From a virus, in IMG/VR virus record IMGVR_UViG_3300018414_000007, positions 17,107 to 81,106 of that record: DNA of 64,000 nt; one strand, given 5' to 3'. Positions 19,161 to 42,347 of the stretch are shown here, one piece after another (within the stretch, counting starts at the first letter, position 1; each line of letters opens with the position of its first letter). Below the pieces are notes generated by a model. The model had not been told where the DNA came from. It ran no database searches and saw only the letters and a program-made list of their open reading frames with translations. The position numbers were made by a program, and so were the translations under genes.

Positions 19161-19195
19161 CTATCTCCTCCAATAAAGCGTTAAAAAGGAGGTAG
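19161..19195 (+). promoter_or_regulatory. Hairpin sequestering the polA Shine-Dalgarno
   Basis: CTATCTCCT (19161-19169) pairs with AGGAGGTAG (19187-19195). Confidence 0.6.
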
Positions 19196-21085
19196 ATTAT
19201 AGAAAGTAAAATAAATTTTGTAGGTCCAGAGGATTTATACAAAGAGGAAGGTAATCAACTATATGATCTAAAATCTATAGAAGATTGCCTTTCTTGGTTA
19301 AAGACATTATCATCAGTATCTTTAGATACAGAAACAGAAGGATTTTTTAATTTTAAGAATAAAATTATAATGCTTCAGTTATCTGACGGTAAAGAAGTTT
19401 GGGTGATAGATGTAAGAGGAAAAGAATACTATAATAAGTTAAAACCTGTATTAGAAAGTATTTTAGTATTAGGTCAAAATTTAAAGTTTGATTACAAATT
19501 CTTAAAATTTGAAGGAATAGAACTAAATAATATATATGATACATTCTTAGCTGAATGTGCTTTAACTAACGGTCTTACTGAAAGGCAATTAGGATTAGGA
19601 GCTATTGCTAAGAAGTATTTAGATGTTAATTTAGATAAATCTGTTAGAAATCAATTTATAGGATTAGAAGGTAAACCCTTTACATTCAAACAAATTATAT
19701 ATGGTGCAGAAGATGTACTGTATTTACATAAAATAAGAGAATTACAATTACAGAAAGCAGCAGAGTTAGATCTAGTAGATTATATACTATTAGAATGTCA
19801 AGCTTGTCTTGCAATCAGTGATATTGAATATAATGGTCTTGGATTTAATCCTCAAGCTTGGTTAGATTTAGCTAAAAAGGTAAATAGTAATATACCTCAG
19901 CTAGAATTAGAATTAGATCAGTTTATATTATCTGAACCAAAGAAGTATTATAAGTTTATTAACCAAACTCCTCAATTAGATATATTTGGAGGTGAAAGTA
20001 GAAGAGTATTAGTTGAATGGAGTAGTCCTACACAAATGCTTAAGCTACTTAAAGTAGTCTTAAATGATCCAAATTTAGAAAAGACTGAGGAAAAAGAAAT
20101 TGCTAAATATCAATTTGATTATCCATTTATTAGTAAATTCATAGATTATAAGAAAGAAGCTAAACTTGCTTCTACTTATGGTGAAGATTTTATTAAGTAT
20201 GTTAATCCTGTTACAGGTAGAATCCATAGTGATTTTTGGCAGATTCTAGTTACTAGTAGAGTTAGTTCTAATAATCCTAATTTACAAAACCTTCCAGCTA
20301 AAAATGATTATTTAAATTGTTTTGTAGCAGATAAAGGTAAGAAAATAATAGGTATAGATTACAAAGGACAAGAAGCAAGAATAGCTGCTTGTTTTAGTAA
20401 AGAAGCTACTTGGTTAGATGCTATTAAAGATGATAAAGACTTACATGGTGAAGTTGCTAAGCTTATGTTTAATATTACAGATGCTGAAGTAAGAAATAAA
20501 CCAGATTTTCTTAGAGGTAAATCTTATAGAGATATAGCTAAGAATATTAACTTTATGGCTTTATTTGGTGGTACTAAATGGAAGTTAAGTAAAATGCTTT
20601 TGTGTAGCTTAGATGAAGCTCAGGATCTATTAGACAGATACTTTTCTGCAACTAAGAACTTACAAGTATATTTAAATAAATGTGCTTCTTATGGCCTTAA
20701 AAGAGGTTATATAAGAAGTGGTAAACCATATAGTGCTATTAGATGGTTTGAGAATTGGAAAGAAAATTTAGATATTTATAAAGACTCTAAAATTATTGGA
20801 GAAATTACAAGAAACTGTTTTAATAGTCCAATTCAATCTACTGCAGCTATTACTACTAAATTAGCATTAATTAAACTAAGAGATTATATAAAAGATAATT
20901 CTTTGTCTAACAAAGTAAAGATTATTCATGTAGTTCATGATGCAATATATACTGAAGTAGATGATGATATTTGTAATGAATTTGCAGAAATTCAATCAAA
21001 TATAATGAAAAAGGCTGGTAAAGTATTCATACAAGATTTAATTATGGATACAGATATAACCATAGATATATATTGGAAAAAATAA
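19196..21085 (+). CDS. polA: DNA polymerase family A with 3'-5' exonuclease; non-AUG (ATT/ATA) start
   Basis: The frame is open from 19196 and includes ExoI DTET (19325). ExoII GQNLKFD, ExoIII YGAEDV, SSNNPNLQN, motif A IDYKGQEARI, motif B RDIAKNINF, motif C VHDAI. Confidence 0.92.
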   Translation: MIESKINFVGPEDLYKEEGNQLYDLKSIEDCLSWLKTLSSVSLDTETEGFFNFKNKIIMLQLSDGKEVWVIDVRGKEYYNKLKPVLESILVLGQNLKFDYKFLKFEGIELNNIYDTFLAECALTNGLTERQLGLGAIAKKYLDVNLDKSVRNQFIGLEGKPFTFKQIIYGAEDVLYLHKIRELQLQKAAELDLVDYILLECQACLAISDIEYNGLGFNPQAWLDLAKKVNSNIPQLELELDQFILSEPKKYYKFINQTPQLDIFGGESRRVLVEWSSPTQMLKLLKVVLNDPNLEKTEEKEIAKYQFDYPFISKFIDYKKEAKLASTYGEDFIKYVNPVTGRIHSDFWQILVTSRVSSNNPNLQNLPAKNDYLNCFVADKGKKIIGIDYKGQEARIAACFSKEATWLDAIKDDKDLHGEVAKLMFNITDAEVRNKPDFLRGKSYRDIAKNINFMALFGGTKWKLSKMLLCSLDEAQDLLDRYFSATKNLQVYLNKCASYGLKRGYIRSGKPYSAIRWFENWKENLDIYKDSKIIGEITRNCFNSPIQSTAAITTKLALIKLRDYIKDNSLSNKVKIIHVVHDAIYTEVDDDICNEFAEIQSNIMKKAGKVFIQDLIMDTDITIDIYWKK

Positions 21086-21103
21086 ATATTAAATTAAAAA
21101 ATA

Positions 21104-22747
21104 ATGCAAATAAGAAATAAAAAAAGAAAGGCATTAGAAGCAGAAATACAAAGAGAAAAAGACCCCAACTTTAACCCTGTAGAACATATAGTAGTAAACT
21201 CATTAGAGTATATTTTTGGTAAAGATCCTTCTGAATGGGGGATTTTATGTAAACCAATTGAAACTGTAGTTTCATATATGTGGGAAGAAAAGAAAAGAAA
21301 GCCTTTACATAAAAGGTTAAAACCTAAAAAGAATTTTCCTACTAATAGTCCTTCTACTAGTTTTGAACCAGTAAGCGTAACTTTTAGTTCAGGAACATCT
21401 ACAATAATATCTTCAACACCTAGTTGGGAATTAACAGAATCTTCTGATCAAGAAGAATCAATTGTAGATATTGAATTTGATGGAGAAGAATCTACTTCTA
21501 TTACTGATCATGGTGTAATTACAGCTACTGATGCACAAAAATTTAATTACTATACTCATGATGCTAAGTTGTCAAATCTTAATCTTGGAGAATTACAAGA
21601 GTATATAAATATATTATATAAGTATATTAATAAAGCTAACCAAAGAATAGAGCATTATAGTAATATAATGTTAACTAGTCCTAATCCTGCAATTAATGAA
21701 TTAAGAAACAGTTCAATTTCAAATAGAGACGAACTTCTTAATAAATTAAATCTTATTAAAATCTATATAAGTAATTTTAAAGAAAGTGTTGTTAAACAAC
21801 CATTAGAAGAGATAAATAAAAAGGAATCTTTTAATGATAAGATTAAACAGGGATTTAGATCTTTTTATTCAGCTACACTTGGATATCCTACTGTTATAAA
21901 GGGTTATATAATCAATGATAAAATATTTACTAATAATAGTGAATTAGCTTTATATGCAAGTACTAATAAAATACTTTGGGATCTTACAAAAATGATTTTA
22001 AGGGTTTCAAGATTCAATTATGAAACAAATGAAATTGAAACTAAAACTAAAATTGTTTCATTTAAACCTTTAAGTAAAGTTAAAGAAAGTTTAATACTTT
22101 CAGTACTACCTTTATTAGTAGATTTTAAAATCTGTTCATTTAAAAATAGTAACAATTTCTTTAATGATAAGATAGATAGAGAAAAGTTTCTTTATACTAA
22201 AACTCCATTTTGGAAAGTTAAAACAGTTAAATCCTTAATTGGTAAAAACAGATTAAGTAATTCCGTAGTTTCTATTGAAAATCCAGATAAAGGAGATGAA
22301 ATTTACTTTTTATTAGGTGATTGTAAAGTAGAAAATAAAGAACTTTGTGGTTATAGTATACCAATGGATAAGACTATAACTATAAATTCTATAGTAAAAG
22401 TAAAGGATAGTAAAATATCTAAATATAATTTAAAACAAGTAACAAATACAGAGGCTGAAGTTATCTCTATTAAACCAAATTCTTCTAGTAAAAAGATATC
22501 TAAGAATTCTAATAATCATAGATTGGATATTATAACTATTAGAAATAGATTTAAAGAGATGAAAGTCTATGCACAAGATCTAAAATTTATTAAAAACAAA
22601 TCAATTAAAACAAATGACAGCAGTATTAAAAAAGAAAGTGGTAATAAAGAGCCTTACCACGGAATCTCCAAAGACTGGTTTGAAAGTACAATCCAAAATA
22701 TCTACCAAAGTGAGTACATCCAATACACATCCAGTCCAAACTTCTAA
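21104..22747 (+). CDS. Large hypothetical protein
   Basis: 547-aa ORF; its 3' end overlaps the next gene. Confidence 0.7.
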   Translation: MQIRNKKRKALEAEIQREKDPNFNPVEHIVVNSLEYIFGKDPSEWGILCKPIETVVSYMWEEKKRKPLHKRLKPKKNFPTNSPSTSFEPVSVTFSSGTSTIISSTPSWELTESSDQEESIVDIEFDGEESTSITDHGVITATDAQKFNYYTHDAKLSNLNLGELQEYINILYKYINKANQRIEHYSNIMLTSPNPAINELRNSSISNRDELLNKLNLIKIYISNFKESVVKQPLEEINKKESFNDKIKQGFRSFYSATLGYPTVIKGYIINDKIFTNNSELALYASTNKILWDLTKMILRVSRFNYETNEIETKTKIVSFKPLSKVKESLILSVLPLLVDFKICSFKNSNNFFNDKIDREKFLYTKTPFWKVKTVKSLIGKNRLSNSVVSIENPDKGDEIYFLLGDCKVENKELCGYSIPMDKTITINSIVKVKDSKISKYNLKQVTNTEAEVISIKPNSSSKKISKNSNNHRLDIITIRNRFKEMKVYAQDLKFIKNKSIKTNDSSIKKESGNKEPYHGISKDWFESTIQNIYQSEYIQYTSSPNF

Positions 22748-23558
22748 AATTCCTACTTATCGTCCACAAGTAAGAAGTAGACATCCTTCACATAATGGAT
22801 TAAGGACATTATTAGCTAAATTACCTTTTAAATCTTTAATTAGATTTGGAAGTACTACCGAAGTAAATGATGGTATAAAAAGAGTAGAACTTAATTCTCC
22901 TGAAGCTATTAGAAAAAGTAGTAATAAACTACTTATGAAACAAAGCTTCTCTGAAGGTAATGTTAAAACAGCAGATTGGACTAATCAAGTTGCTAATGTA
23001 CCTGCAATTACAGAAAACTGGAAATATAAGTGTGTAATCAAAAAGCATTTTGGTAGTAGAGGTGAAGGTAATACTTTAGTATCTACTCAAAAGGAGTTTG
23101 ATTTGTTTATGAAGGGTAAAAGTGCTTCTGAATATATATTTGAGAGATTCTATAATTATGATAGAGAATACAGACTTCATGTAAATGAAGATGGTTGTTA
23201 TTATACTTGTAGAAAAGCATTAAAATCAGATACTCCAGAAAGCTCTAAATGGTTTAAAAATGATAGTAATTGTGTTTGGTATTTAGAAACTAATCCAAGC
23301 TTTGATAAACCAGTAAATTGGGATAGTGTTGTTAGTCAGAGTGTTAAAGCTCTTAAAGCAGTAGGATTAGACTTTGGAGCAGTTGATTTGAGAATTCAAT
23401 CAGCTAAAGATTCAAAAGGTAGAGTTAGGGAAGATCCTGACTTTATTGTAATTGAAATTAATAGTGCTCCAAGTTTGAATGATAGTGAAAGTATTGTATT
23501 TGCTAAATACTTAGAAGTACTTCCTACCATGTTAAAGAAAAAGTTTTTAAAAAGTTAA
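22614..23558 (+). CDS. ATP-grasp peptide/amide ligase
   Basis: SNKLLMK, FGSRGEG, REYRLHV, LDFGAVD and IEINSAP motifs. Confidence 0.9.
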   Translation: MTAVLKKKVVIKSLTTESPKTGLKVQSKISTKVSTSNTHPVQTSKIPTYRPQVRSRHPSHNGLRTLLAKLPFKSLIRFGSTTEVNDGIKRVELNSPEAIRKSSNKLLMKQSFSEGNVKTADWTNQVANVPAITENWKYKCVIKKHFGSRGEGNTLVSTQKEFDLFMKGKSASEYIFERFYNYDREYRLHVNEDGCYYTCRKALKSDTPESSKWFKNDSNCVWYLETNPSFDKPVNWDSVVSQSVKALKAVGLDFGAVDLRIQSAKDSKGRVREDPDFIVIEINSAPSLNDSESIVFAKYLEVLPTMLKKKFLKS

Positions 23559-23570
23559 TATAAAAGAATA

Positions 23571-24383
23571 ATGAATAAACATAAAAATTTTAAAGTATTT
23601 GTAGTAGGATTTAATACTGGCTACGCTAGGTGGATACAAGGTGAACTTGCTAAAAATATGAAAGAGGCTGATGTTGTTCTGTTTACAGGGGGAGAAGATA
23701 TTTCTCCCTCTTTATACGGAGAAACAGCTGGAAGACATACATTTCCCTATGATAGACCAAATGGTCAATTACCTTTAAGAGATGAATTTGAGGTAAGGAA
23801 TTATAAAGAAGCGTTAGAGTTAGGTAAACCTATGTGGGGTACTTGTAGAGGTGCTCAATTGTTATGTGCTTTAGCTGGTGGTAAATTAGTACAGGATATG
23901 AGTCATCATAGTTCTCATAAATTGTATTTCTATGATAATGAGTATGAGTGTGTAAGTAATACTTTACATCACCAAATGCAATATCCTTACACTATGAAAG
24001 ATGGTGAAGACTATAAAATCTTAGCTCATGCTATAGGTCAGAGCCCTTACTTCTTAGATGGTAATGATAAACCTCTTATTATGCCTGAAACAGTGAAAAA
24101 ACAAGGATATGCTAAACCTCTTATTAAAGAACCAGAGTTTGTATATTATCCTAAAATTAAATCTTTAGGTATACAAGGACATCCTGAAATGATGTCTACT
24201 AATAGTGATATGGTTTTAGTATGTCATGCATTTTTAAATCTTTTGATAGAGGATAAGTTAAATGATGCTCTCCTTTTAAATATTCCTGTTAAATCTATTA
24301 TAAGTAGAGCTTGGGATTTTAATTTTACAAAAGAAGAAAATGCATTATTAAATCAAATTAAAGAAGTCCCTATCGAGGTATAA
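23571..24383 (+). CDS. Class I glutamine amidotransferase / peptidase C26
   Basis: FTGGEDISP, GTCRGAQLL (nucleophile Cys), NTLHHQ and GIQGHPE (His-Glu). Confidence 0.9.
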   Translation: MNKHKNFKVFVVGFNTGYARWIQGELAKNMKEADVVLFTGGEDISPSLYGETAGRHTFPYDRPNGQLPLRDEFEVRNYKEALELGKPMWGTCRGAQLLCALAGGKLVQDMSHHSSHKLYFYDNEYECVSNTLHHQMQYPYTMKDGEDYKILAHAIGQSPYFLDGNDKPLIMPETVKKQGYAKPLIKEPEFVYYPKIKSLGIQGHPEMMSTNSDMVLVCHAFLNLLIEDKLNDALLLNIPVKSIISRAWDFNFTKEENALLNQIKEVPIEV

Positions 24384-24384
24384 A

Positions 24385-25014
24385 ATGAAAGAAGTAACAA
24401 TAGATAATATATTAGAGATTTTAAAAGAAGATATAGCAGGTTTAACTGAAGATAATAGAGAATCTACTATAGAAAAAATACAGTCTTATTTAATTAAATT
24501 TAGTTTCTTAACAAAAATTCCAAATATATTATTTGTTTATGGAAGCTTAAGAAAAGGAGAATTTAATTTTAAAAAGATTCAAGAAACTTTTGGGGAAAAT
24601 AGTATAATACATCTTTATCCTACAAGAGCAGATTATATGACTCTTTATGATTTAGGTGATTATCCTGTAATGATGAAGGCTAAAGGAACTTATCATACAT
24701 TTGGTGAATTAGTTTACTGTACTGATGAAGTAGTTGAAGTTATTAAACAAATGGAGTTAGAAGCAGGTTATCTATATGATACTTGTAATATATGGATTGA
24801 AAATAATAATAATCCATCTACAAAATATAGATTAATAAGTGTTCCTACTTATGTAGCAGGACCTCGCCTTAAAGATAAAATTTTCTTAAATCCAAGTACA
24901 TATCCAAGAATTACTTGTGGAGACTGGAAAAAGTATTTAAAATCTGTAGAAATAGAAGATACAAGAACTGATTTAGAAAAATTGCAAGAATCTTATTTTG
25001 GTTATTGCTACTAA
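24385..25014 (+). CDS. Gamma-glutamylcyclotransferase (AIG2-like)
   Basis: LFVYGSLRKGEFN, LYDLGDYP, GELV, LEAGY and ITCGDW motifs. Confidence 0.88.
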   Translation: MKEVTIDNILEILKEDIAGLTEDNRESTIEKIQSYLIKFSFLTKIPNILFVYGSLRKGEFNFKKIQETFGENSIIHLYPTRADYMTLYDLGDYPVMMKAKGTYHTFGELVYCTDEVVEVIKQMELEAGYLYDTCNIWIENNNNPSTKYRLISVPTYVAGPRLKDKIFLNPSTYPRITCGDWKKYLKSVEIEDTRTDLEKLQESYFGYCY

Positions 25015-25029
25015 ATTAAATATATATAA

Positions 25030-25869
25030 ATGAAAATAAAAATTGATAATTGGAAAATAGGTTCTGATCCAGAAGTTTTCCTTCATAATAAAAGTACAAA
25101 AGAAGTAGTATCTGCAATTCCCTTTATTCCGGGAGATAAACATGATCCATACCAAATACCTACATTACCAGAGGGTCATATGATTCAAACTGATAATATA
25201 ATGGTAGAGTATTGTTTACCTCCTACAAGTGATTATAGGGCTTTAATTAAGTCTTTTAGAGACTGTATAGCATATACTAATAATACTATACCAAGTGAAT
25301 TAGAAGTGGTTGTTAAAGCTTCTGCAAATGTAAGTGAACAATACTTACAAGATGAACAAGCTAAAAGATTTGGATGTGATCCAGATTTTAATGCTTGGAC
25401 AGATGATTTAAACAATCCTCCTAATAGTGATACTAATCTTAGAACTTGTGGTGGTCATATCCATATTGGCTATGATAATCCAGACTATGAACTTTCAAAG
25501 AAATTAATTAAAGCGTTAGATATATTTTTAGGTGTTCCATCTATTCTTTTAGATCCTGATAAAGATAGAAAGAAAATGTATGGTAAAGCTGGTGCACATA
25601 GGTTAAAAACTTATGGTGTAGAATATAGAGGTTTATCTAATTTCTGGTTGGCAGAAGAAGAATTAACTCAGTTAGTATTTAATGGAGTTAGAATGGCCAT
25701 TGCTATGATTAATAGTTCTGAATCTTACTTAGATAAGATGAGTGATACATTACAGTTAAAGATTCAAACTTGTATTAATACAGGAGACGAAGAGTTAGCT
25801 CAACAACTTGTACATCAACTTAGTTTATCTAGTTTATTGGCTGGTTCTACTAAAGTATATATTGACTAA
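25030..25869 (+). CDS. phiEco32-like COOH-NH2 ligase (type 2)
   Basis: IGSDPEVF, DNIMVEY, FGCDPDFNAW, RTCGGHIHIG, YGKAG and GVEYRGLSNFW motifs. Confidence 0.9.
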   Translation: MKIKIDNWKIGSDPEVFLHNKSTKEVVSAIPFIPGDKHDPYQIPTLPEGHMIQTDNIMVEYCLPPTSDYRALIKSFRDCIAYTNNTIPSELEVVVKASANVSEQYLQDEQAKRFGCDPDFNAWTDDLNNPPNSDTNLRTCGGHIHIGYDNPDYELSKKLIKALDIFLGVPSILLDPDKDRKKMYGKAGAHRLKTYGVEYRGLSNFWLAEEELTQLVFNGVRMAIAMINSSESYLDKMSDTLQLKIQTCINTGDEELAQQLVHQLSLSSLLAGSTKVYID

Positions 25870-25880
25870 TTAAAGAAACT

Positions 25881-25951
25881 TAAGAGTAGTGATAGCCTTG
25901 AGTTCGCTTTAGTTACTAATTTATTGGTAGCCTCCGGCTATCCTACTTTTA
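25881..25951 (+). ncRNA. Structured element upstream of the GATase start
   Basis: TAAGAGTAG-T-GATAGCC/GGCTATC-CTACTTTTA closing stem; inner GTTACTAA/TTGGTAGC hairpin. Confidence 0.5.
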
Positions 25952-25968
25952 AATTAAATAAAACAAAT

Positions 25969-26000
25969 ATGTGTGGATTAATATTTTGATGTGTGGATTA
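25969..26000 (+). repeat. Duplicated GATase start ATGTGTGGATTA (MCGL) x2
   Basis: Exact 12-bp direct repeat at 25969 and 25989, giving mini-ORFs MCGLIF* and MCGLYSLSLY*. Confidence 0.85.
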
Positions 26001-26015
26001 TATTCACTATCTTTG
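25985..26015 (+). promoter_or_regulatory. Bacteroidota promoter for the HNH gene
   Basis: TTTG-N19-TATCTTTG, ending 5 nt before ATG 26021. Confidence 0.65.
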
Positions 26016-26020
26016 TATTA

Positions 26021-26551
26021 ATGAAAATATGTAAAAAATGTAATGTTGAAAAATCTCTAGGAGAGTTTCACAAAGATAAAAGAACTAAGGATGGATTATA
26101 TAAATGGTGTAAATCTTGTAAAAAAGAGTATGATTTAATATACAGAAAAACAGATAAAATTCAAAATTTATATAAGTCTAAAGAGTATAGAAATAGAAAA
26201 AAGGAATATAAAAAATGGAGAGATATGACTGATCCAAGAGAACAACTTTTAATATCTGCTAAAGCTAGGGCTAAAAAGTATAATATACCTTTTAATTTAA
26301 CTATAGATGATATAGAATTAAGAGCTTATTGCCCTTTATTGGAAATTAAATTAGAAAGAAAACAATATGGAAAGGTGGGTTCATTTAATCCAAATTCCCC
26401 TTCTTTAGATAGAATAATTCCTAGTTTAGGTTATGTAAAAGGAAATATAGAGGTAATTTCAATGAAAGCAAATATAATGAAAAATAACGCAAGTATAGAA
26501 GAATTAAAAACATTTGCGAATAATATATTAAGGTGGTATGATTATGATTAA
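26021..26551 (+). CDS. HNH-type homing endonuclease with N-terminal Zn finger
   Basis: CKKC...CKSC, then CPLL and SPSLDRIIPSLGYVKGNIEVISMKAN. Confidence 0.85.
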   Translation: MKICKKCNVEKSLGEFHKDKRTKDGLYKWCKSCKKEYDLIYRKTDKIQNLYKSKEYRNRKKEYKKWRDMTDPREQLLISAKARAKKYNIPFNLTIDDIELRAYCPLLEIKLERKQYGKVGSFNPNSPSLDRIIPSLGYVKGNIEVISMKANIMKNNASIEELKTFANNILRWYDYD

Positions 26552-28142
26552 AATAATATTAATATTAGCATTTATAAATTATTTGCTATACTTCCTTAAT
26601 GGAAGAAAAAAGACTAATTTAGCTCTTTGTGGCTTAATTGGTTACTCTGGACAAGAGAACTATAATATAGACAAAATAAGGTTTCTAATGCTATGGAATA
26701 GTGTAGAAAGAGGTAAAGATGCTACAGGCATATATACCCCCTCAACAGGACTTATAAAAGATAATGAACCTGCTGGTAAGTTTCTATTTCAAAGTCATTT
26801 TAAAAAATTAGTTGATGATAATCAATTAATAGCTCATGTAAGAGCTAAAACAATTGGAGCAAATTTAGTTAAAAACGCTCATCCATTTGATGAAGAGAAT
26901 ATTGTATTAGCTCATAATGGTACTTTAGTTGACTATGTAGCGTTAGCATCCAAATATGATATGAAAGCTCTTAATTGGGATGTAGATTCTCAAGTATTAT
27001 CTTTTGGTATTAATAGAGCATTTAATGCTGAAACTACTTTAGATAACTTAAATATTGAAACTTTAAGTGAATATAAAGGTGCTGCTGCTTTACTATTTTA
27101 TAGTAAAAACTTAGATATGATATTTGTATTTAAGGATAAAGAGAGACCTTTATTTTATGGGTATGATCTTGATGGAGGAATGTATATGTCTTCTATTGAA
27201 GAGTCATTAAAAGCTGCAGGATTATTTGAAATTAAAGCGTTTACTGATAATACTTTGTATGCTATTGATCATGGTGAAATTGTAAAGACTTGGGTTTATA
27301 AAACCTATGCTGAACTTAATAAAACAGCTTATGTTGGTAAAGTTCGAGGGAGGGAACCAGGTCAGAGATTCCCAAAGTTAAAAAAAGGGGAAAGAGGAAT
27401 AGACATCACAAATGGAACCACTAAAGCATATTGGTTCTTAGATATGTGGCTATATTCTAATACCCAAACATGGAATCATCAAAGAGGAATCTATGGTAAG
27501 TTTGCTGAAATGAAAACTGGAAGGTTTTATTTAGTAACTGGATTCTATGCTGAAGATATAATGTTTGTTCAGGTAAAAGATGAGAATGGAAATGATGGAA
27601 TGGCAGCCTTAAGTTCATTTGATATAGATAGGTGTATTCCTCAACCTGAACAGTTATTTAGAATAACGGCTCCCCTTGTTGCTAAAAAGACAAAACAAAA
27701 ACTTTGGGAAAAAGGACAAATAGTTGAATTGATGAGTTATGATATAACAGAAGGATCAGTTTCTTTCTGGTCTGATTCAGAAAATGCAGAATACGAAATT
27801 CCTATGAAGTGTTGTAAACCATTAACACCTCAAGAAGTTATAGATTTCTGCTTAGAAACAGAAGATCCTAAAGATAAAGGAACTAAAGAACCATTACTTA
27901 TTCAACCCGCTCCTGAACCATCACCTTTTATAGAAAATACACCTGAGCCTGAACCTTTAGGAGATTTCATATCAACTCCAGTATTCTTGGGAGCTTTGGA
28001 ATTAATTGAAAGTGGATTAGGTAAATTAGAAGAAAAGTATGATGAAAATGGAGATTTAACCCCAGAAATTAATGCTATACGTATGGACATCACAAATTGC
28101 AAAGATAAGACATATCTTGACAACTTACTGGTACATAATTAA
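26538..28142 (+). CDS. Class II (Ntn) glutamine amidotransferase; catalytic Cys at 26628
   Basis: CGLIGYSG, RGKDATG, AHVRAKT, NAHPF, HNGTL and VDSQ motifs. Confidence 0.88.
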   Translation: MIMIKIILILAFINYLLYFLNGRKKTNLALCGLIGYSGQENYNIDKIRFLMLWNSVERGKDATGIYTPSTGLIKDNEPAGKFLFQSHFKKLVDDNQLIAHVRAKTIGANLVKNAHPFDEENIVLAHNGTLVDYVALASKYDMKALNWDVDSQVLSFGINRAFNAETTLDNLNIETLSEYKGAAALLFYSKNLDMIFVFKDKERPLFYGYDLDGGMYMSSIEESLKAAGLFEIKAFTDNTLYAIDHGEIVKTWVYKTYAELNKTAYVGKVRGREPGQRFPKLKKGERGIDITNGTTKAYWFLDMWLYSNTQTWNHQRGIYGKFAEMKTGRFYLVTGFYAEDIMFVQVKDENGNDGMAALSSFDIDRCIPQPEQLFRITAPLVAKKTKQKLWEKGQIVELMSYDITEGSVSFWSDSENAEYEIPMKCCKPLTPQEVIDFCLETEDPKDKGTKEPLLIQPAPEPSPFIENTPEPEPLGDFISTPVFLGALELIESGLGKLEEKYDENGDLTPEINAIRMDITNCKDKTYLDNLLVHN

Positions 28143-28152
28143 AGAATATATA

Positions 28153-29805
28153 ATGTTAGAAGAGATAAAAACAAAAGAAGAATTAAAAAACAAAAAAGAT
28201 TTTCTTTTAAAGAACCCATTTCATCCTAATAAGTTTATATACGCCGAAGAAGGAGAATCTCCTAAAGAGATTGTAATAATTAATGGAAGAGGATATGATG
28301 TAGATAAAAGTAATTTATCAGAAGATTTTTACCATCCTGGGTATTTCTTTTTGGCTGGAACAGGAGCAATGCTTGCGTTTGTTACTGCTACTAAAGCTAG
28401 AAGAGTGTTTGATCCAGAAAACCCTGAAACCTGGTGTCAAATAGTTTCTGAGTACAAACCTTCTAAAGAAAGGTATAAGAACGTTGAAACATCTGATTAT
28501 GAAACTTATAATGCTTCTCTTAAAAAGATTATTTCACAAGCTTATGGTGAATTAAAACCAGTATCTAATACAGAAGAGGAGTTATTAAACTTAAGTTTTG
28601 TAAAAGGAACTGTTAATCCTGATTTTTGGTTTCCTTTACAAGAAAAACAACATTTAGACAAGATGTTACCTTATAAAAAGTTTGAAAATATATATCACAA
28701 GGTTGATATAAATGATCTTGAGCATCAAATGAGATCTCAAGGATACCCAGAAGAAGAAATAAAGAAAAGAATAACAGAAGCTTTACAAAAGAATATTTTG
28801 TATGGTGTTGACTCTTTAACTTACACAGCTTTTGAAGGAATAAGATTTACATTTGGTGTTGAAATTGAGACTTGTATTGGAAGACTTGATGATGATCAAA
28901 TTAAATTTTTAAATGTTAAAGCAGTTCATGATGGTTCTCTAAGAGATAAAAATGGTAATACTCCTGGTGGAGAATATGTTACTGGTGTATTAACTGGAGA
29001 TGCTGGATTGACTCAATTAAGTGACTTATGTAGAGCTTTGTCTTCTAAATGTAGAGTAAATGCTCAGTGTGGAGTTCACGTTCATGCAGGAAGTTTAAAT
29101 TGGAATAGAGAAGATATTGTTTATTCTTATATTTTAGCAGAAATGTTAGAAGATGAGTTATTTATGATGCTTCCTAAATCAAGAAGAAGTAATACTTACT
29201 GTAGAAGATTAACTGAACTTACTTTAGATAAAGTTCCTTTGTTAAAAACAGCAGTTAGATCTGAATATAATATTCTTATAGATACAATCTATAATGATAT
29301 TTTGAAAGAAGTAACTCAAGTTAAAAATAAAGGTAAAATATATTCTGGAGTAGAAGAAGGAGTAGAAGAACCAATAATTGCTAGTGGGATTTATAACAGA
29401 GAAAAGCAACATCCAAATGGAGCTAAATGTGGTTATGATAAATCTGCACAAAGATATTGTTGGTTAAACTATGTTACTCTTATGTATAATACTAAAGGGG
29501 GTAAAAATAGTAACACTTTAGAGATTAGAAGTCATAGTGCTACAATGAATTTCAAAAAGATAAAGAATTGGATTAAGATTTTCTTTGCTTTTTGTAAGTA
29601 TGTAGAAACTAGTAAATCTAAGATTAGAAAAGGAAATGTAACTCTTGCTCATGTAATTAAAAAGGCATATCCTAAAACTGGAGATAAACTTCTTAAGTAT
29701 ATTGAAGAAAGAAAACAAGTGTTTAATTCTCATGATGAGTCTGTAGATTATGTAGAAATCTCAGAAGAAAGAAAGACTATAAAGGAGATAGTAGCAGCAG
29801 AATAA
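28153..29805 (+). CDS. Putative amidoligase (Amidoligase_2-type)
   Basis: TFGVEIET, HDGSL, GGEYVT, CGVHVH, RYCWLN and TLEIRSHSAT motifs; likely start MLEEIK at 28153. Confidence 0.88.
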   Translation: MLEEIKTKEELKNKKDFLLKNPFHPNKFIYAEEGESPKEIVIINGRGYDVDKSNLSEDFYHPGYFFLAGTGAMLAFVTATKARRVFDPENPETWCQIVSEYKPSKERYKNVETSDYETYNASLKKIISQAYGELKPVSNTEEELLNLSFVKGTVNPDFWFPLQEKQHLDKMLPYKKFENIYHKVDINDLEHQMRSQGYPEEEIKKRITEALQKNILYGVDSLTYTAFEGIRFTFGVEIETCIGRLDDDQIKFLNVKAVHDGSLRDKNGNTPGGEYVTGVLTGDAGLTQLSDLCRALSSKCRVNAQCGVHVHAGSLNWNREDIVYSYILAEMLEDELFMMLPKSRRSNTYCRRLTELTLDKVPLLKTAVRSEYNILIDTIYNDILKEVTQVKNKGKIYSGVEEGVEEPIIASGIYNREKQHPNGAKCGYDKSAQRYCWLNYVTLMYNTKGGKNSNTLEIRSHSATMNFKKIKNWIKIFFAFCKYVETSKSKIRKGNVTLAHVIKKAYPKTGDKLLKYIEERKQVFNSHDESVDYVEISEERKTIKEIVAAE

Positions 29806-31436: not shown

Positions 31437-31697
31437 ATGGAAAATTTAGCATCAATCCTTATTGGTATAGCATTAATTGCAGCAGGAATACTGTCTTATT
31501 GGTTATTTAAACCAAAAGATAAGAAGTCTATAGATAGTAATACACCTATTGAAGTAGATGAAAAGAAAGCTGAAGTAACTGAAGCAATTGTGACAAAACC
31601 AAAGAGAGTGTATAAGAAAAAAGTAGCAAAAGAAGAGGAGATTAGTGGAGAAGGAGAAAGTTTACCAAGTACAACAGAAGGAGGACAGCAATCTTAG
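31437..31697 (+). CDS. Small membrane-anchored protein
   Basis: N-terminal transmembrane helix and a charged tail. Confidence 0.6.
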   Translation: MENLASILIGIALIAAGILSYWLFKPKDKKSIDSNTPIEVDEKKAEVTEAIVTKPKRVYKKKVAKEEEISGEGESLPSTTEGGQQS

Positions 31698-33540
31698 TAA
31701 TAAGATTCTATCTGATATTGTAGTATTTAACAAATATGCAAAGTATATTCCAGAACTTAATAGAAGAGAGTCTTGGGAAGAGATAGTAACTAGATATGTA
31801 AATATGCTTACAGATAAATATCCACTCTTAACAGAGGAGATATTAGTCAAAAGTAAATTTATATTTGAAAAGAAGGTATTACCTTCTATGAGAGCATTAC
31901 AATTCGCTGGTATTCCTATTGAAAGGAATCCTAGTAGAGTATATAATTGTGCTTACTTACCAGTTGATGATTACAGAGCTTTTAGTGAAGCTATGTTTTT
32001 ATTATTAGGTGGTACAGGAGTAGGATATAGTGTACAATTTGCTCATATAGAAAAATTACCAGAGATAGTTAAACCAACTAAAACTAAACGTTACTTAGTT
32101 AGTGATAGTATAGAAGGTTGGGCAGATTCCATTAAAGCTCTTATAAAGAGTTATCTGGGATATACTAATGCAAAGCCAAGATTTGATCTTTCTGATATTA
32201 GAAAGAAAGGAGCTAGGTTAATAACTGCTGGAGGTAAAGCTCCAGGTCCAGAACCACTAAAGACTTGTTTGTTTCAAATTGAAACATTACTAGAAAGGAA
32301 AGAAAATGGGAGTAAACTAACAGATGTAGAATGTCATGATATTATGTGTTATATTGCAAATGCAGTATTAGCAGGTGGTATTAGAAGAGCTGCAATGATT
32401 AGTTTATTCTCATTTGATTCCGAAGCTATGCTTACTAGTAAAACAGGTAATTGGTGGGAATTAAATGAACAAAGAGGTAGAGCAAATAACTCTGCTGTAA
32501 TTGTTAGAAATAGAATAAACAAAGAAGATTGGGATAGAGTTTGGAAGATAATTGAAAATAGTAATTCAGGAGAACCTGGAGTCTATTTTACAAATGATGC
32601 TAATTGGGGTACTAACCCTTGTTGTGAAATAGCATTAAGACCATTTCAATTTTGTAATCTTACTGAAGTAAATGTATCTGATGTTGAATCTCAAGAAGAT
32701 TTAAATGAGAGAGTAACAATAGCTGCATTCTTTGGTACACTTCAAGCAGGATTTACAGATTTCCATTATCTAAGAGATATATGGAGAAAAACAACTGAAA
32801 AAGAAGCTCTGATTGGAGTAGGTATGACTGGAATAGGTTCTGGTCAAGTATTAAAATATGATTTAAAAAGTGCTAGTAAAGAAGTTAAAAAAGAAAATGC
32901 AAGAGTATCTGATATTATATCTATCAACTCTGCAGCTAGGTGTACAACAATTAAACCTTCTGGGACTAGTAGTTGTGTACTTGGTACTTCTAGTGGAATT
33001 CATGCATGGCATGATACTTATTATCTCAGATCTATTAGAGTTGGTAAAAACGAGTCTTTATATACTTATTTAAGTATATATCATCCAGAACTAATAGAAG
33101 ATGACTTTTTTAAACCAGAGACACAAGCAGTAATAAGAATTCCACAGAAAGCTCCTAAAGGTTCTATATTAAGAACTGAAAGTGCTTTAGACCTATTAAA
33201 TAGAGTAAAGAAATTTAATCTTGAGTGGGTTAAATCTGGTCATAATAAAGGTAGTAATACTAATAATGTATCAGCTACAATATCAATTAAACCTGAAGAA
33301 TGGGTAGAAGTTGGTGAATGGATGTGGAATAATAAAGAGACATTTAATGGATTAAGTGTATTACCATATGATAATGGTAGTTATATCCAGGCACCCTTTG
33401 AAGTAATAACTGAAGAGGAATACAATAAGAAATTTGAAACACTAAAAAATATAGATTTAACAAAAGTAATAGAACTAGATGATAGTACACAGCATTCTCA
33501 AGAAGCTTCTTGTGCAGGAGGACTATGTGAAGTTACTTAA
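31645..33540 (+). CDS. nrdJ: Class II (B12-dependent) ribonucleotide reductase
   Basis: YNCAY, LLGGTGVGYSV, GGIRRAA, GTNPCCEI, FCNLTE, TIKPSGT and C-terminal CAGGLCE. No small subunit present. Confidence 0.93.
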   Translation: MEKEKVYQVQQKEDSNLSNKILSDIVVFNKYAKYIPELNRRESWEEIVTRYVNMLTDKYPLLTEEILVKSKFIFEKKVLPSMRALQFAGIPIERNPSRVYNCAYLPVDDYRAFSEAMFLLLGGTGVGYSVQFAHIEKLPEIVKPTKTKRYLVSDSIEGWADSIKALIKSYLGYTNAKPRFDLSDIRKKGARLITAGGKAPGPEPLKTCLFQIETLLERKENGSKLTDVECHDIMCYIANAVLAGGIRRAAMISLFSFDSEAMLTSKTGNWWELNEQRGRANNSAVIVRNRINKEDWDRVWKIIENSNSGEPGVYFTNDANWGTNPCCEIALRPFQFCNLTEVNVSDVESQEDLNERVTIAAFFGTLQAGFTDFHYLRDIWRKTTEKEALIGVGMTGIGSGQVLKYDLKSASKEVKKENARVSDIISINSAARCTTIKPSGTSSCVLGTSSGIHAWHDTYYLRSIRVGKNESLYTYLSIYHPELIEDDFFKPETQAVIRIPQKAPKGSILRTESALDLLNRVKKFNLEWVKSGHNKGSNTNNVSATISIKPEEWVEVGEWMWNNKETFNGLSVLPYDNGSYIQAPFEVITEEEYNKKFETLKNIDLTKVIELDDSTQHSQEASCAGGLCEVT

Positions 33541-35219: not shown

Positions 35220-35903
35220 ATGAAATTTGAGATAGATATAGAGAGATTAATAGATGAAGGAGTAAAACTCCATCAATTCTTTTTATGTCAATTAGTATAT
35301 CAACAAGACAGTAAAATATTAAACTATTACTTAGAACAATTTGGTACTTTTTTAGATAAAAATGATTTTGAATTTTTAGTAAGTAATGAATATTTAGGTT
35401 TACATAATCCACAAAAAGGATATGTATTCAGTAATCTATTTATTACTAAGAAATTTATAAATAAGTTTATTGAAAAAGAAGTTAAATCAAAATTGGAACA
35501 AGAATCAGTTGAAGATTGGATTGATTTGTGGTATAATTTATTTCCTAAAGGAGTAAAATCAGGAGGTTATCTTGTCAGAAGTGATAAGAATGGCTGTCTT
35601 AATAAGATGAAGAAATTCTGTAAGAAGAATCCTGATTTTACTAAGGAGATAATCTTAAAAGCTACTAGTGATTATATAGATTATTATAGAATGAGGAATT
35701 GGAGTTATATGACTTCAGCTCATTATCTAATATATAAGAATGATATATCACTATTAGCAGGTCAATGTGAGATGATACTAGACAAAATAAATTCTGGTAA
35801 AGAAGTAAATCTAAAAATAGAACAATATAAAATTGATTCTAAAGATAAAGATTATTTCTCAGAAACAGATATATTTGGTAGTAACATGATGGATAGATTG
35901 TAG
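35220..35903 (+). CDS. Replication-module protein upstream of the helicase
   Basis: 227 aa with WYNLFP...KMKKF...ILKAT; position suggests an initiator or loader. Confidence 0.6.
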   Translation: MKFEIDIERLIDEGVKLHQFFLCQLVYQQDSKILNYYLEQFGTFLDKNDFEFLVSNEYLGLHNPQKGYVFSNLFITKKFINKFIEKEVKSKLEQESVEDWIDLWYNLFPKGVKSGGYLVRSDKNGCLNKMKKFCKKNPDFTKEIILKATSDYIDYYRMRNWSYMTSAHYLIYKNDISLLAGQCEMILDKINSGKEVNLKIEQYKIDSKDKDYFSETDIFGSNMMDRL

Positions 35904-35911
35904 GGAGGAAA

Positions 35912-37048
35912 TTGACAGGAGAAGTAACAAGTTCTTCATATTACCGTAAAGTAATAGAAGACATAAAAAATAACAAGAAAAGAAGGTTAGAAGGAAAACT
36001 AAATTGTATACCTTGGAGAAGTTTTCCTAAATTATGTACAAAAATTCCAGGTATAGAACAAGAACAATATGTTATTGTTACAGCAAATAGTAAAGTAGGT
36101 AAGACTCAACTTGCAGATTTTCTATATGTATTAGAGCCATATAAGTTTATTAAGGATAATCCTGATTGTGGTATTAAGTTAAAGATATTTTATTTCTCTT
36201 TAGAAATTAGTAGAAAGAAGAAACTAATATCTCTATTAACAAATAAGATTTATAATGAAACTGGTAAAATAATTGATGCTCAGAATATTAATTCTAAGTT
36301 TGATAATTATATACTAGAAGATGATATAGAACAATTAATAGAAAAATATATACCCTATTTTGATGAGTTCGAGAAAACTGTATCTATTATTGATAATATT
36401 AGGAATCCTTTTGGTATTTATAAGTATATGCGAACCTATGCGGAAACTCATGGTAAGTATGTTAAAAAGGAAATAGAAATAATAGATGAATATGGAAATG
36501 TAAAGAATGAACTAGTAAATGATTACTATGTTCCAAATGATCCAGATGAATATGTAATTGTGTTAACTGACTCAGCTAACTTATTAGCTCCTGAGAATGG
36601 AGGTAATTTGCATCAAGCTATGAGTAAGTTTAGTAGTGATTATTGTCTTCATATGAGAGATAAATGGAAGTACACAGTAGTTAATATACAGCAACAAGCT
36701 GCAGAACAAGAGAAACAACAATTTAATAACTTTGGTGGTTCTATCACTAATAAACTAAGACCATCAGCAGATGGATTAGGTGATAATAAGCTAACTGGTA
36801 GAGATTGTAATCTTATGTTTGGTTTATTTGCTCCACATAGATATGAAATAAAAACATATAATGGCTATGATATTGAAAGATTAAAAGACAATTATAGAGA
36901 ATTAAATGTTTTATTTAATAGAGATGGTGGTGGATTTTTTACAGATGACTTACTATTTAGTGGTGCTGTAAATCATTTTGAAGAAGCTCCTAGAGAAATC
37001 AGAGGAGATGAAGAATATAGTAAATTGTTAAAAAGGATAAGGAGTTAA
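35912..37048 (+). CDS. DnaB-like (SF4) replicative helicase
   Basis: Walker A ANSKVGKT, FSLEIS, IVLTDSANLL, NIQQQ and NRDG motifs; TTG start. Confidence 0.85.
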   Translation: MTGEVTSSSYYRKVIEDIKNNKKRRLEGKLNCIPWRSFPKLCTKIPGIEQEQYVIVTANSKVGKTQLADFLYVLEPYKFIKDNPDCGIKLKIFYFSLEISRKKKLISLLTNKIYNETGKIIDAQNINSKFDNYILEDDIEQLIEKYIPYFDEFEKTVSIIDNIRNPFGIYKYMRTYAETHGKYVKKEIEIIDEYGNVKNELVNDYYVPNDPDEYVIVLTDSANLLAPENGGNLHQAMSKFSSDYCLHMRDKWKYTVVNIQQQAAEQEKQQFNNFGGSITNKLRPSADGLGDNKLTGRDCNLMFGLFAPHRYEIKTYNGYDIERLKDNYRELNVLFNRDGGGFFTDDLLFSGAVNHFEEAPREIRGDEEYSKLLKRIRS

Positions 37049-37660
37049 GTGAGAGAAGAAGAAGTAATGATAATGAGTGATACTAGTAGAGACTTAGTAA
37101 TTCAAAAAACTAACCAAGATACAATGTTGCAAGAAGCACATACTTGGGTTAAGAGTGGATTATTGCCTGCTAATATCAAAACTCCAGAGCAAGCTGTAGT
37201 AATAGCTCTGAAGGGTAAAGAATTAAATCTACAGACTATGGCATCATTTGAAATGATTGATGTTATAATGGGTAAACCTTGTCTAAAGCCTAAAGGAATG
37301 GCAGCTTTAGTAAGAAAAGGTGGAGTAAAAACTAAAACCATCAAAGACTTTGAACCTGTTTATAATGAAGAGGGAAAGAAAGTAGATATGGAAACTGTTA
37401 TCAGATTCTATAGAGATGGTATTGAAGAAGACGTAAAATATACTTATATGGATGCTTCTAATTTAGGTTTAACTTCCAAAGATAATTGGAAGAAACAACC
37501 TGGGGTTATGATGTATTGGAGGTGTTATAGCAAAGGAGCTAATAGAGTTTGTCCAGACTTGATTGGAGGATTATATACAACAGAAGAATTAGCATCCTTT
37601 ACAGCAAATGCACCAGAAATCATCTTAACAGAAGATGGAGAATCTGTAGTAGTACAATAA
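37049..37660 (+). CDS. RecT/Bet-like single-strand annealing protein
   Basis: WKKQPGVMMYWRC...CPDLIGGLYTTEE motif; GTG start. Confidence 0.75.
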   Translation: MREEEVMIMSDTSRDLVIQKTNQDTMLQEAHTWVKSGLLPANIKTPEQAVVIALKGKELNLQTMASFEMIDVIMGKPCLKPKGMAALVRKGGVKTKTIKDFEPVYNEEGKKVDMETVIRFYRDGIEEDVKYTYMDASNLGLTSKDNWKKQPGVMMYWRCYSKGANRVCPDLIGGLYTTEELASFTANAPEIILTEDGESVVVQ

Positions 37661-38388: not shown

Positions 38389-38402
38389 AATGGTAAGTTA
38401 AA

Positions 38403-38434
38403 TTTGTAATTACCGTTTTAATTTAGTATCTTTA
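38403..38434 (+). promoter_or_regulatory. Bacteroidota-type promoter for the second HNH gene
   Basis: TTTG-N20-TATCTTTA, 3 nt before the ATG. Confidence 0.55.
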
Positions 38435-38437
38435 TAC

Positions 38438-40615: not shown

Positions 40616-41423
40616 TTTAGCAATATTAGATGCAGATTTTTTATTATTTAGTTGTACTGCTGGAAATAAAGTATTAGATTCTGAAGGTGATCCTATAAGA
40701 GAAGATAATAAATTTGTATATACAGATAAAACCTTAGAAGAGGTTTTTAAGGCTGCTGACGTCACTATTAGTAATTTACTAGATAAGTGTTCAGCTGATT
40801 ATTATTGTGGCTTCCTAGGGGCTTGTAAGAGCTTTAGAAAGGAAATCTATCCAGATTATAAAGCCAATAGAAAAGATTTTGAAAGACCAAGATTTTATAG
40901 AGAGTTAATAAACTATTTATATGATACTTGGAAATTTATAGGTACTACTGATGGTCTTGAAGCAGATGATGCTGTTAATATAGTTAAGAATAATTTTAAA
41001 AATGACTATAACTGTATAATTGTATCATCTGATAAAGACTTGATTAAGTGCATTGAAGGAACTTATTTAAATCCAAGAGATTTAAGTATAGTTGAAACAG
41101 ATAATACAGAAGCCAGAAGAAGTTTCTGGAAGAGTATGATAACAGGAGATCCTATTGATAATATCAAGGGTTTACCTGGAAAAGGTATTGTTTATGCAAA
41201 TAGTGTAATAGATTTTTGTGAAGAAAAGAAGGAGAATTATGCTATTGAAGTGCTAGATAGATACATTAGACAGTTTGGTGAGGAGGATGGAATAGAAGAA
41301 TTTAGAAAAAACTATAAATGTTTGAAAATATTAGATAATTTTCGTAACTTTGTTTTGCCGACATTGCGAAGTTGGGAATTATCTTTTACTAAATCTTCTA
41401 AATTAGATTTGGAAGGAGTTTAA
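40608..41423 (+). CDS. 5'-3' exonuclease (T7 gp6/PolA N-terminal-like)
   Basis: LDADFL, YKANR, LEADDAV, SSDKDL and GDPIDNIKGLPGKG motifs. Confidence 0.92.
   Translation: MRNLAILDADFLLFSCTAGNKVLDSEGDPIREDNKFVYTDKTLEEVFKAADVTISNLLDKCSADYYCGFLGACKSFRKEIYPDYKANRKDFERPRFYRELINYLYDTWKFIGTTDGLEADDAVNIVKNNFKNDYNCIIVSSDKDLIKCIEGTYLNPRDLSIVETDNTEARRSFWKSMITGDPIDNIKGLPGKGIVYANSVIDFCEEKKENYAIEVLDRYIRQFGEEDGIEEFRKNYKCLKILDNFRNFVLPTLRSWELSFTKSSKLDLEGV
41321..41352 (+). promoter_or_regulatory. Internal Bacteroidota promoter
   Basis: TTTG-N20-TAACTTTG inside the 3' end of the exonuclease gene. Confidence 0.55.
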
Positions 41424-42028
41424 TGAATAAAAACGAGGAGGCAGAAACATTTAATTTAAGGGACCAAATCAGTCCTAAAGAAGCATATGTTCCTAAAAAG
41501 AATAAATCATGTTTCTTTGTATTACCATTATTAGGATATCCTAGTTATTGGTATTATGGATTAATAAACTGTTACTTAAGAGATAATATAAATAAACCTG
41601 AACTTGGTTATAAGATTTTCTTAAATCTATCAAATTATGATAAAAAGGTATTAAATATACATGAGTTTAATCAATTCTATCAATTAGAAGATAAGACTTA
41701 TATGTATGTATTTGATATACCTAAGAGATTTGAAGATGATTATTATAAATTTTGTGAAGGTAAATATTCTAAAATTTCACCTGAAGCTAAAACATTAATT
41801 TGTAAGCTGAGTGGGATTAAACCAGTTACAGAAAGTGTTGTACACAAAGTATTGTACAAAACTTCAGATATGAAACAAAGAATAGAAGAATTAATAGGTG
41901 AGATATTACCAATGGAAGCTGAAGTATATTCAGTACCCAATTTAGATAAAGAAACATATTCTATTTTTAAAATTAGAAATAGTAATATAGTTAAAGCAGT
42001 GGAGGATGAGGTAAGTGAAAGAGGATAA
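41423..42028 (+). CDS. Hypothetical protein (crAss-like replication block)
   Basis: FVLPLLG...LINCYL...MYVFDIP...GKYSKIS. Confidence 0.7.
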   Translation: MNKNEEAETFNLRDQISPKEAYVPKKNKSCFFVLPLLGYPSYWYYGLINCYLRDNINKPELGYKIFLNLSNYDKKVLNIHEFNQFYQLEDKTYMYVFDIPKRFEDDYYKFCEGKYSKISPEAKTLICKLSGIKPVTESVVHKVLYKTSDMKQRIEELIGEILPMEAEVYSVPNLDKETYSIFKIRNSNIVKAVEDEVSERG

Positions 42029-42347
42029 ATTCTTTAAATTTGTTGATTGGAGAGTAAAACAAATAGTTACTGTTCTAGCAAGTAAAGGAAAAGAATATAG
42101 TACAGAAGATAATAAACTGCATAATTTTGATAAAGCTTCAATTAAATCTGGAAAGATTAGAGAAGAAGTAATTAAAGATTTTATGTTAAAACATGAAATT
42201 AGTGTAGATGATATTATTGATAATATTAAGGAAGGTAAACTTCCAAGTAAAAGTTTAGTAGCTGAAAAAGTAGGAGATATAATTAACTATTATATTCTAC
42301 TAGAAGCTTCAATATATGATAGAATAGATAAGGAGGTGAATGGATAA
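42015..42347 (+). CDS. Nucleotide-modification-associated (DUF1599/Nmad1-like) protein
   Basis: LASKGKEYS...LHNF...K..DIINYYIL pattern. Confidence 0.65.
   Translation: MKEDKFFKFVDWRVKQIVTVLASKGKEYSTEDNKLHNFDKASIKSGKIREEVIKDFMLKHEISVDDIIDNIKEGKLPSKSLVAEKVGDIINYYILLEASIYDRIDKEVNG

Follow-up and report, generated by a model that had tools for sequence, protein, structure and literature searches.

Ribosomes of the Bacteroidia are described as concealing the anti-Shine-Dalgarno (anti-SD) sequence under the proteins bS21, bS18, and bS6 (PMC7797042), in agreement with the premise from which a first-pass annotation of the DNA studied here had set out. The only well-studied natural message that uses the anti-SD of Bacteroidota is rpsU (PMC7797042, PMC9976891, PMC13000457, PMC13000453). 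On this mRNA, ribosomes of Flavobacterium johnsoniae form an SD–anti-SD helix and lose bS21 (PMC13000457), and its 13-bp SD is the one that Bacteroidia ribosomes read, with bS21 loss (PMC9976891, PMC13000457, PMC13000453). It has also been proposed that phages redirect the ribosomes of Bacteroidota by encoding a bS21 (Chen et al. 2022, PMC9723584, cited in PMC9976891), and non-AUG starts are reported to accompany stronger or better-conserved SDs (Belinky, Rogozin, Koonin 2017, PMC5622118). In this study, we analyzed seven SD-like sites, each ending 3 nt before a start codon, in a 64,000-nt window of a crAss-like phage genome (bases 17107–81106 of the 81,106-bp IMG/VR record IMGVR_UViG_3300018414_000007; all coordinates are window positions). 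Judged from sequence, the chances are about even that these seven sites are true SD elements that support weak start codons.

All seven motifs named in the first-pass annotation are present letter for letter at their positions, and all lie on the + strand. The polA initiation region (19161–19198) contains AAAAAGGAGGT at 19183–19193, with GGAGG at 19188–19192, followed by an in-frame TAG and ATT at 19196; the gene (19196–21085) encodes a family A DNA polymerase with a 3'–5' exonuclease, of 629 aa if initiated at ATT. For nrdJ, the initiation region (31635–31647) consists of GAGGAGA (GGAGA at 31637–31641), TTA, and GTG at 31645, and the encoded class II (B12-dependent) ribonucleotide reductase (31645–33540) carries a 14-aa N-terminal extension relative to its homologs. 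The initiation region of the DnaB-like replicative helicase (35902–35914) lies directly 3' of the TAG stop of the upstream gene and reads AGGGAGG (GGAGG at 35904–35908), AAA, and TTG at 35912; the gene spans 35912–37048 (378 aa). Next to it, the initiation region at 37038–37051 contains TAAGGAGT (GGAGT at 37041–37045), a TAA spacer that is also the helicase stop codon, and GTG at 37049, and precedes a RecT-like annealing protein with a weak Pfam match (37049–37660). Gene 41423 is preceded by GAAGGAGT (GGAGT at 41415–41419) and TTA within 41412–41425, and its ATG at 41423 overlaps the exonuclease gene as TAATG. The region 42001–42017 belongs to gene 42015, a phrog_6802 member, whose GTG follows TGAGG (42007–42011) and TAA; of its two cores, GAGG lies 3 nt and GGAGG 9 nt before the start. 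Finally, the metallophosphoesterase region (42326–42342) contains AGATAAGGAGGTGA and ATG at 42340, with GGAGG at 42332–42336 and a TGA spacer. The earlier claim that every start lies exactly 3 nt after a GGAGN pentamer therefore holds for the spacing, while gene 42015 has TGAGG in place of GGAGN. The spacing is, as claimed, below the optimum, which is given as 5–9 nt (PMC7264876) or 7–9 nt (PMC13000457).

For six of the seven genes, the start codon follows from the reading frame or from homologs; the RecT-like gene is the exception, with GTG at codon 1 or ATG at codon 7 or 9 as possible starts. In polA, the 58 codons after the in-frame TAG contain no ATG, GTG, or TTG. When residues are numbered from ATT, the exonuclease domain starts at position 25, before the first ATG is reached, and the protein matches the polymerase of a relative (L002), which uses ATG at the equivalent place, from residue 6. 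The gene must begin at AUU or AUA, with ATA at 19199 as the alternative start. Read-through of the TAG, or fusion to the upstream gene, was rejected because two in-frame stops lie between and the L002 polymerase starts at the same place with ATG. In Escherichia coli, infC starts at AUU. The polA gene resembles infC in its AUU or AUA start, and differs in encoding a DNA polymerase and in being preceded by a near-perfect SD inside a hairpin. The F. johnsoniae infC gene starts at ATA (PMC7797042). For nrdJ, the helicase, and gene 42015, no further start-like codon occurs for at least 53 codons. The helicase N-terminus is consistent with 17 homologs, two of which are also non-ATG-initiated, the 42340 protein aligns with its homolog in Cellulophaga phage phi14:2 from residue 1, and the phrog_6802 alignment likewise covers the gene 42015 protein from residue 1. 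Around the seven sites, alternative starts 6–9 nt past the core were absent, save for the ATA in polA. A prfB-type +1 frameshift at 42340 was rejected by eye, as the codon preceding the stop is unable to re-pair.

Two further observations concern the 5' part of nrdJ. The 14-aa extension was measured against about 40 homologs beginning M-x-L, and an in-frame AAGGAGG (31678–31684) lies inside the gene, just 5' of the codon aligned with the homologs' Met, and could be left over from an earlier start. Upstream lies an 86-aa open reading frame (ORF; 31437–31697), with a TAnnTTTG promoter motif whose last letter is 1 nt ahead of its ATG; lacking a family match and sharing 53 nt with nrdJ, this ORF may be an nrdJ leader rather than a gene.

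To quantify the motif, we counted GGAG and GAGG cores that, when aligned to GGAGG, end 3 nt ahead of the start. This core is found at 6 of 99 starts in the longest-ORF calls made in this analysis, and at 7 of 99 once polA is added. Among start-like triplets inside genes, the corresponding counts by phase are 4/564, 7/2307, and 3/420 (0.3–0.7%). At the worst-phase rate, the probability of at least 7 in 99 is 8e-6, or about 1e-4 when 13 spacings are allowed for. Across the genome, the core followed by any three nucleotides and ATG, GTG, or TTG occurs 28 times, with six of these occurrences at gene starts, and other spacings give 0–3. The first-pass annotation had named the background of Glu and Gly codons as a way in which its claim could fail. 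In that test, the motif is enriched above the in-gene background and is not tied to one phase: the seven sites are spread over the three phases of the upstream frames, and two of them are not within a preceding gene at all, which excludes, in this genome, an origin as a by-product of upstream Gly/Glu codons.

What the 3-nt form tracks best is a weak start codon, not gene function. Among genes of at least 100 aa, the site precedes 4 of 5 forced non-AUG starts vs 2 of 50 ATG starts (P 2e-4); the exception among the former is the primase, which has TTG and no site. This pattern is similar to the compensation of weak starts by SDs in SD-using prokaryotes, in which GUG and UUG starts accompany stronger SDs (PMC5622118); the counterpart here is the site at four of the five forced non-AUG starts. 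Unlike the SD-using prokaryotes of that study, the other genes of this phage and its presumed host do not use SDs, and the spacing is unusually short.

Complementarity to the 16S tail was assessed by the threshold of Jha et al., which calls a site strong if its duplex with the 8-nt anti-SD has an energy of -7 kcal/mol or less. All seven sites reach this value. Strong sites occur at 14 of 99 starts vs 18 of 562 internal controls, showing at gene starts the enrichment over background that is characteristic of canonical SDs, and they form two spacing classes, one at 3 nt (seven sites) and one at 5–10 nt (seven sites). In the latter, ATG follows in every case on genes of at least 100 aa. The former departs from the canonical spacing of 5–9 nt, and SD-using contigs measured in the same register show a peak at 5–8 nt. 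Past GGAG, the match of the seven sites continues along the 16S tail into a 5' AA and a 3' T or TGA. Moreover, the two best matches to the extended 16S tail in 81 kb are the 42340 start (best) and the polA start, with about 13 paired positions and one mismatch or bulge, and the other five sites have 5–8 bp. Upon folding, four of the seven regions are less stable than most shuffles. The polA SD forms the 3' arm of a hairpin of about 9 bp with CUAUCUCCU (19161–19195) and would accordingly be occluded in free RNA; the other six sites are not in a hairpin.

In comparison with the extended SD of rpsU, the phage similarly places a strong complement to the 16S tail on few genes and leaves nearly all others without one, and polA and 42340 approach the same helix length, with about 13 paired positions interrupted once by a mismatch or bulge. 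In contrast, the phage sites belong to replication genes, most of their starts are non-AUG, most pair over 5–8 bp, and no autoregulatory logic is apparent. The position also differs. The core guanines of rpsU lie at -11, -12, and -15, positions read from the mutants named G-11, G-12, and G-15 in PMC13000457, whereas the core here occupies -8 to -4, about 7 nt nearer the start.

The short spacer raises the question of whether the 16S tail reads the motif at all. In T4, RegA and gp43 act as translational repressors, and RegB cuts GGAG in early leaders. By analogy, the phage motif could be the operator of a repressor or of an RNA-cutting enzyme, or else a ribosome trap created by the short spacer, or a sequence with no function. 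A spacer below every stated optimum (PMC7264876, PMC13000457) fits such a reading, as do the pairing at polA and 42340, which reaches up to or into the start codon and is incompatible with decoding, and the polA site locked in its hairpin. It is nevertheless very improbable: the match continues along the 16S tail on both sides of GGAG, a start-like codon stands at the same distance in 7 of 7 cases, the polymerase and the helicase have no other usable start, and no candidate regulator was identified.

We therefore take the sites as probable candidates for real SDs at the even chance given above, because the motif follows the 16S tail, the distance is fixed, essential enzymes have no alternative start, and two relatives share the trait. 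In the mechanism we propose, the sites would pair with the 3' tail of the host 16S rRNA and thereby enable or tune initiation at otherwise poor starts, those with GUG, UUG, or AUU codons, G-rich leaders, and little room between them and the preceding gene. A spacer as short as this one (3 nt, and 4–5 nt in the two closest relatives) might act as a tight ruler; a spacer without slack would set the paired ribosome on a single codon in the P site. Such fixed placement would permit a non-AUG codon in a phage that otherwise relies on AUG and an A-rich leader. Pairing with the anti-SD is a presumed step in a Bacteroidota host. The readers could be the minority of ribosomes that have no bS21, or else normal ribosomes from which a long SD draws out the tail, as for rpsU, and the outcome would be a modest, regulated expression of the replication enzymes.

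Several points weigh against these sites being SDs. The hiding of the anti-SD in the host of this phage is extrapolated from the phylum. The core at -8 to -4 is nearer the start than the stated optima by 2–6 nt, and such short spacing may hinder rather than help. Only 42340 and polA approach the 13-bp helix that is said to be required in F. johnsoniae, the other sites being limited to the shorter pairing described above, and for wild-type ribosomes one mismatch is enough to abolish initiation on rpsU (PMC13000457). Furthermore, non-AUG starts in this phage group do not generally need a site, because in about 70 relatives one is found at 1 of 56 forced non-AUG starts vs 12 of 660 ATG starts; a general rule across relatives that non-AUG starts need an SD was not found. 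Within this phage itself, the primase starts at TTG without a site.

The host is probably a member of the Bacteroidota. This is likely from sequence features because the capsid is crAss-like with Bacteroidota hosts, the promoters are of the TTTG..TAnnTTTG type, and the leaders are A-rich and G-poor. The major capsid protein matches 148 phage records with identities of up to 52%, whose names refer to crAss-like or uncultured gut and faecal phages; among the matches shown, the recorded bacterial hosts are Bacteroides, Flavobacterium, Cellulophaga, or Azobacteroides, all Bacteroidota. Membership in Crassvirales is indicated by the crAss-type capsid and by a ligase cluster and an opposite-strand giant gene that are placed as in phi14:2. 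The Bacteroidota-type promoter motifs are present in intergenic gaps, and the leaders of 51 confident ATG genes contain 50–58% A and 3–10% G between -15 and -1. The record has a G+C content of about 29% and an estimated completeness of 90%. The sole sequencing run listed with this DNA, possibly the source sample, is labelled freshwater metagenome; no RNA run containing it was listed, and no near-identical phage records were found.

The host's ribosomes might, on the other hand, be less unusual than the phylum suggests. If the host of this small phage subclade belongs to a lineage whose ribosomes use SDs in the usual manner, even though its own genes seldom have them, the sites would be plain SDs placed where an A-rich leader with AUG is unavailable, and the ribosome would undergo no special change; we consider this reading distinctly unlikely. 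The distribution among relatives would fit a host shift, as the trait is present in this phage and in two related genomes, G005 (67.6 kb) and G006 (36.9 kb), and absent from about 70 other relatives. Some Bacteroidota classes do carry strong SDs on many ribosomal-protein genes (PMC7797042), and low SD use alone is no proof of a hidden anti-SD. However, wide use would then be expected, and strong sites occur at 14 of 99 starts here vs 30–59% in SD-using contigs (four-letter measure). The residues that hide the anti-SD are reported to be conserved across the phylum (PMC7797042), and a 3-nt spacing is odd even for an ordinary SD.

In G005 and G006, the short-spaced sites lie on homologous genes, with identities to this phage of 59% for the helicase, 73% for nrdJ, 57% for the phosphoesterase, and 51% for the primase. 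These sites are of the GGAGG type, 3–6 nt before a start that is mostly GTG. They read AAGGAGG-gaata-GTG at the phosphoesterase, AGGGAGG-agat-GTG at the phrog_6802 homolog, TAAGGAGA-ttat-GTG at the primase, GAGGAGG-gaat or GAGGAGG-aaaa followed by GTG at the gene after the helicase, AAGGAGG-taac or AAGGAGG-taat followed by ATG at the homolog of gene 29805, and AGGAGA-aaatga-ATG at nrdJ. The helicase has AGAGGAGA-TTG-ATG in G006 only, and its start in G005 has no site. Similar to the present phage, G005 places a short-spaced site at 3 of 6 forced non-AUG starts vs 1 of 44 ATG starts (P 0.004).

Beyond these two genomes, the trait was not seen in the approximately 70 remaining relatives. A core within 14 nt of the start was found at 0 of 96 genes in the nearer relatives L002, L005, L006, and L010. 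Across 72 loci from the helicase alignment, the 36 strong sites among 1086 distinct genes are about the background level, and in cultured crAss-like phages, strong sites range from 1/87 to 12/115 (2/108 in phi14:2) vs 14/99 here. A site also precedes nrdJ of L007 (AAGGAGG-ata-ATG), and among 55 homolog contexts of the helicase start, 7 show a strong site, about 3 to 11 nt away. SD-like cores at starts in other crAss-like phages sit at 3, 6, and 9 nt; they are probably upstream GGA-GGN codons, and because their pattern resembles such codons, we did not count them as support. More distant relatives use ATG and A-rich leaders at the same genes, so the sites are a gain of this lineage rather than relics of transfer. 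Transfer from an SD-using phage was rejected on this ground and because these genes belong to the crAss-like core. For finding relatives, nrdJ was discarded, since its 56 metagenome loci belong mostly to unrelated phages, and searches of viral contigs with the capsid, polymerase, primase, and phosphoesterase returned just distant or short relatives.

Three observations were made along the way in other phages. In phi14:2 (L067), nrdB has a TTG start behind AAAGGAGT (31843). In Flavobacterium phage FpV4 (L088, 2743), TAAGGAGT-taa-TTG precedes a 67-aa ORF, with the same motif as the RecT-like site. In addition, helicase homology in phi14:2 (L067, 15766–15865) extends 33 codons upstream of the ATG annotated for DnaB and sets in directly behind an in-frame stop, and the DnaB gene may be split or mis-started.

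Genes in the window run leftward up to about 9400, rightward from 9700 to 46910, with small early ORFs followed by replication and nucleotide genes, and leftward again from 46941, where the giant gene (5005 aa) and a 635-aa gene lie. Strong sites are unevenly distributed over this layout: they occur at 12 of 43 replication-block genes and at 2 of 2 genes of the giant-gene operon, compared with 0 of 54 in the early (21 genes) and left/structural (33 genes) blocks combined (P 2e-5 for the block bias). The first-pass annotation had stated that replication and nucleotide genes share the 3-nt motif. The sites are indeed located there, but the 3-nt form is confined to 7 of 43 genes, five further block genes and the two of the giant-gene operon have a strong site at another spacing (mostly 5–10 nt), and 31 of the 43 have no strong site at all. 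Its description of the early genes as SD-free is correct (0 of 21) and applies equally to the 33 structural-block genes and to most replication genes.

The 5–10-nt class comprises the sites before 24385, 34049, 44757, and 45277, those of the giant gene and the 635-aa gene, and that of a doubtful 50-aa ORF at 17252. On the + strand, a gene for a GGACT protein has a strong site at conventional spacing (24373–24387; ATG 24385). Two metallophosphatase sites consist of TAAGGAGA 10 nt before ATG 44757 (44739–44759, +) and AGAGGAGA 9 nt before ATG 45277 (45260–45279, +). The giant gene has AAAGGAGA 7 nt before its ATG (61956–61973, -), and the 635-aa gene upstream of it has TGGAGGTT, also 7 nt before ATG (63867–63882, -).

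This block bias favors a timing switch, as had been suggested in the first-pass annotation. The SD-led genes would constitute a temporal class, read only after the phage or infection stress shifts ribosomes to a state with an exposed anti-SD, for example by the loss or alteration of bS21, bS18, or bS6; we regard this model as unlikely. The restriction of strong sites to the replication block and the giant-gene operon would fit such a switch, in F. johnsoniae the loss of bS21 from the ribosome improves the translation of SD-led messages (PMC9976891), and the C-terminal helix of bS6 in Bacteroidota contacts the last 16S nucleotides (PMC7797042). Moreover, an ATP-grasp ligase that is weakly similar to the RimK family adjoins polA. 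However, the 81-kb record, at its estimated completeness of 90%, contains no match to the bS21 domain PF01165 at E <=1, whereas 12 of 14 control genomes were matched, and the Pfam RimK domain PF08443 was not found in the record. The ligase scores 38 bits against TIGR00768, for which the cut-off is 143, and its sole RimK-type label comes from PHROG. The ligase cluster also does not track SD use, because phi14:2 has the cluster and yet strong sites at just 2 of 108 genes. The lack of strong sites in most of the replication block, described above, is a further difficulty for a switch acting on this class. The premises of the switch stand (the sites, the block bias, and a probable Bacteroidota host). 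Compared with the proposal for phage-encoded bS21, the present case is similar in that a Bacteroidota phage would exploit the anti-SD/bS21 system to favor some messages, and different in that the record has no bS21 gene and that the genome is of the crAss-like podovirus type rather than that of a large myovirus.

The ligase cluster itself (22614–31397) comprises the weakly RimK-like ATP-grasp protein, peptidase C26, GGACT, a phiEco32-type COOH-NH2 ligase, glutamine amidotransferases, and an amidoligase, and the same set is present in phi14:2 (g037–g041). The 5005-aa ORF (46941–61958, -) occupies the place of the phi14:2 genes for an RNA-polymerase-associated protein and a catalytic virion RNA polymerase. 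A terminator-like hairpin at 43420–43445 (GGGAGG-loop-CCTCCC followed by a T run) lies 3' of gene 43227–43412. The only tRNA in the window according to ARAGORN and Rfam is tRNA-Arg (TCT) at 14838–14910; the Rfam scan matched this tRNA class alone, with no riboswitch before nrdJ. Among long ORFs of the whole record, TGA terminates 13 of the 48 that lie on the + strand but none of the 27 on the - strand, and TAG only 4 of 75.

Full-text literature searches listed no paper that deals in its title or abstract with the use of SDs by crAss-like phages. The present case stands apart by its crAss-like lineage, its lack of bS21, a spacing that is short and fixed, and the association of the sites with non-AUG starts. 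In its boldest form, the reading of these sites as SDs would make them a small specialised-ribosome regulon of a subclade of freshwater crAss-like phages, in which the polymerase, helicase, ribonucleotide reductase, and neighbouring genes are translatable solely by ribosomes with a freed anti-SD, either naturally free of bS21 or remodelled by the phage, and the SDs, through their very short spacing, serve as rulers that license GUG, UUG, and AUU; this form is rather unlikely. If it were true, the regulon would be the first natural set of messages beyond rpsU for such ribosomes, and phage replication would be tied to the state of the host ribosome pool. For annotation, rules that accept only ATG or a conventional spacer would truncate or miss the polymerase, helicase, reductase, and phrog_6802 genes. 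The leaders also constitute ready-made test sequences for the F. johnsoniae system, with its wild-type, bS21-truncated, and anti-SD-ablated variants. Collectively, strong SDs on essential genes that have no other start would mean that the hidden 16S tail is usable on further messages during infection.

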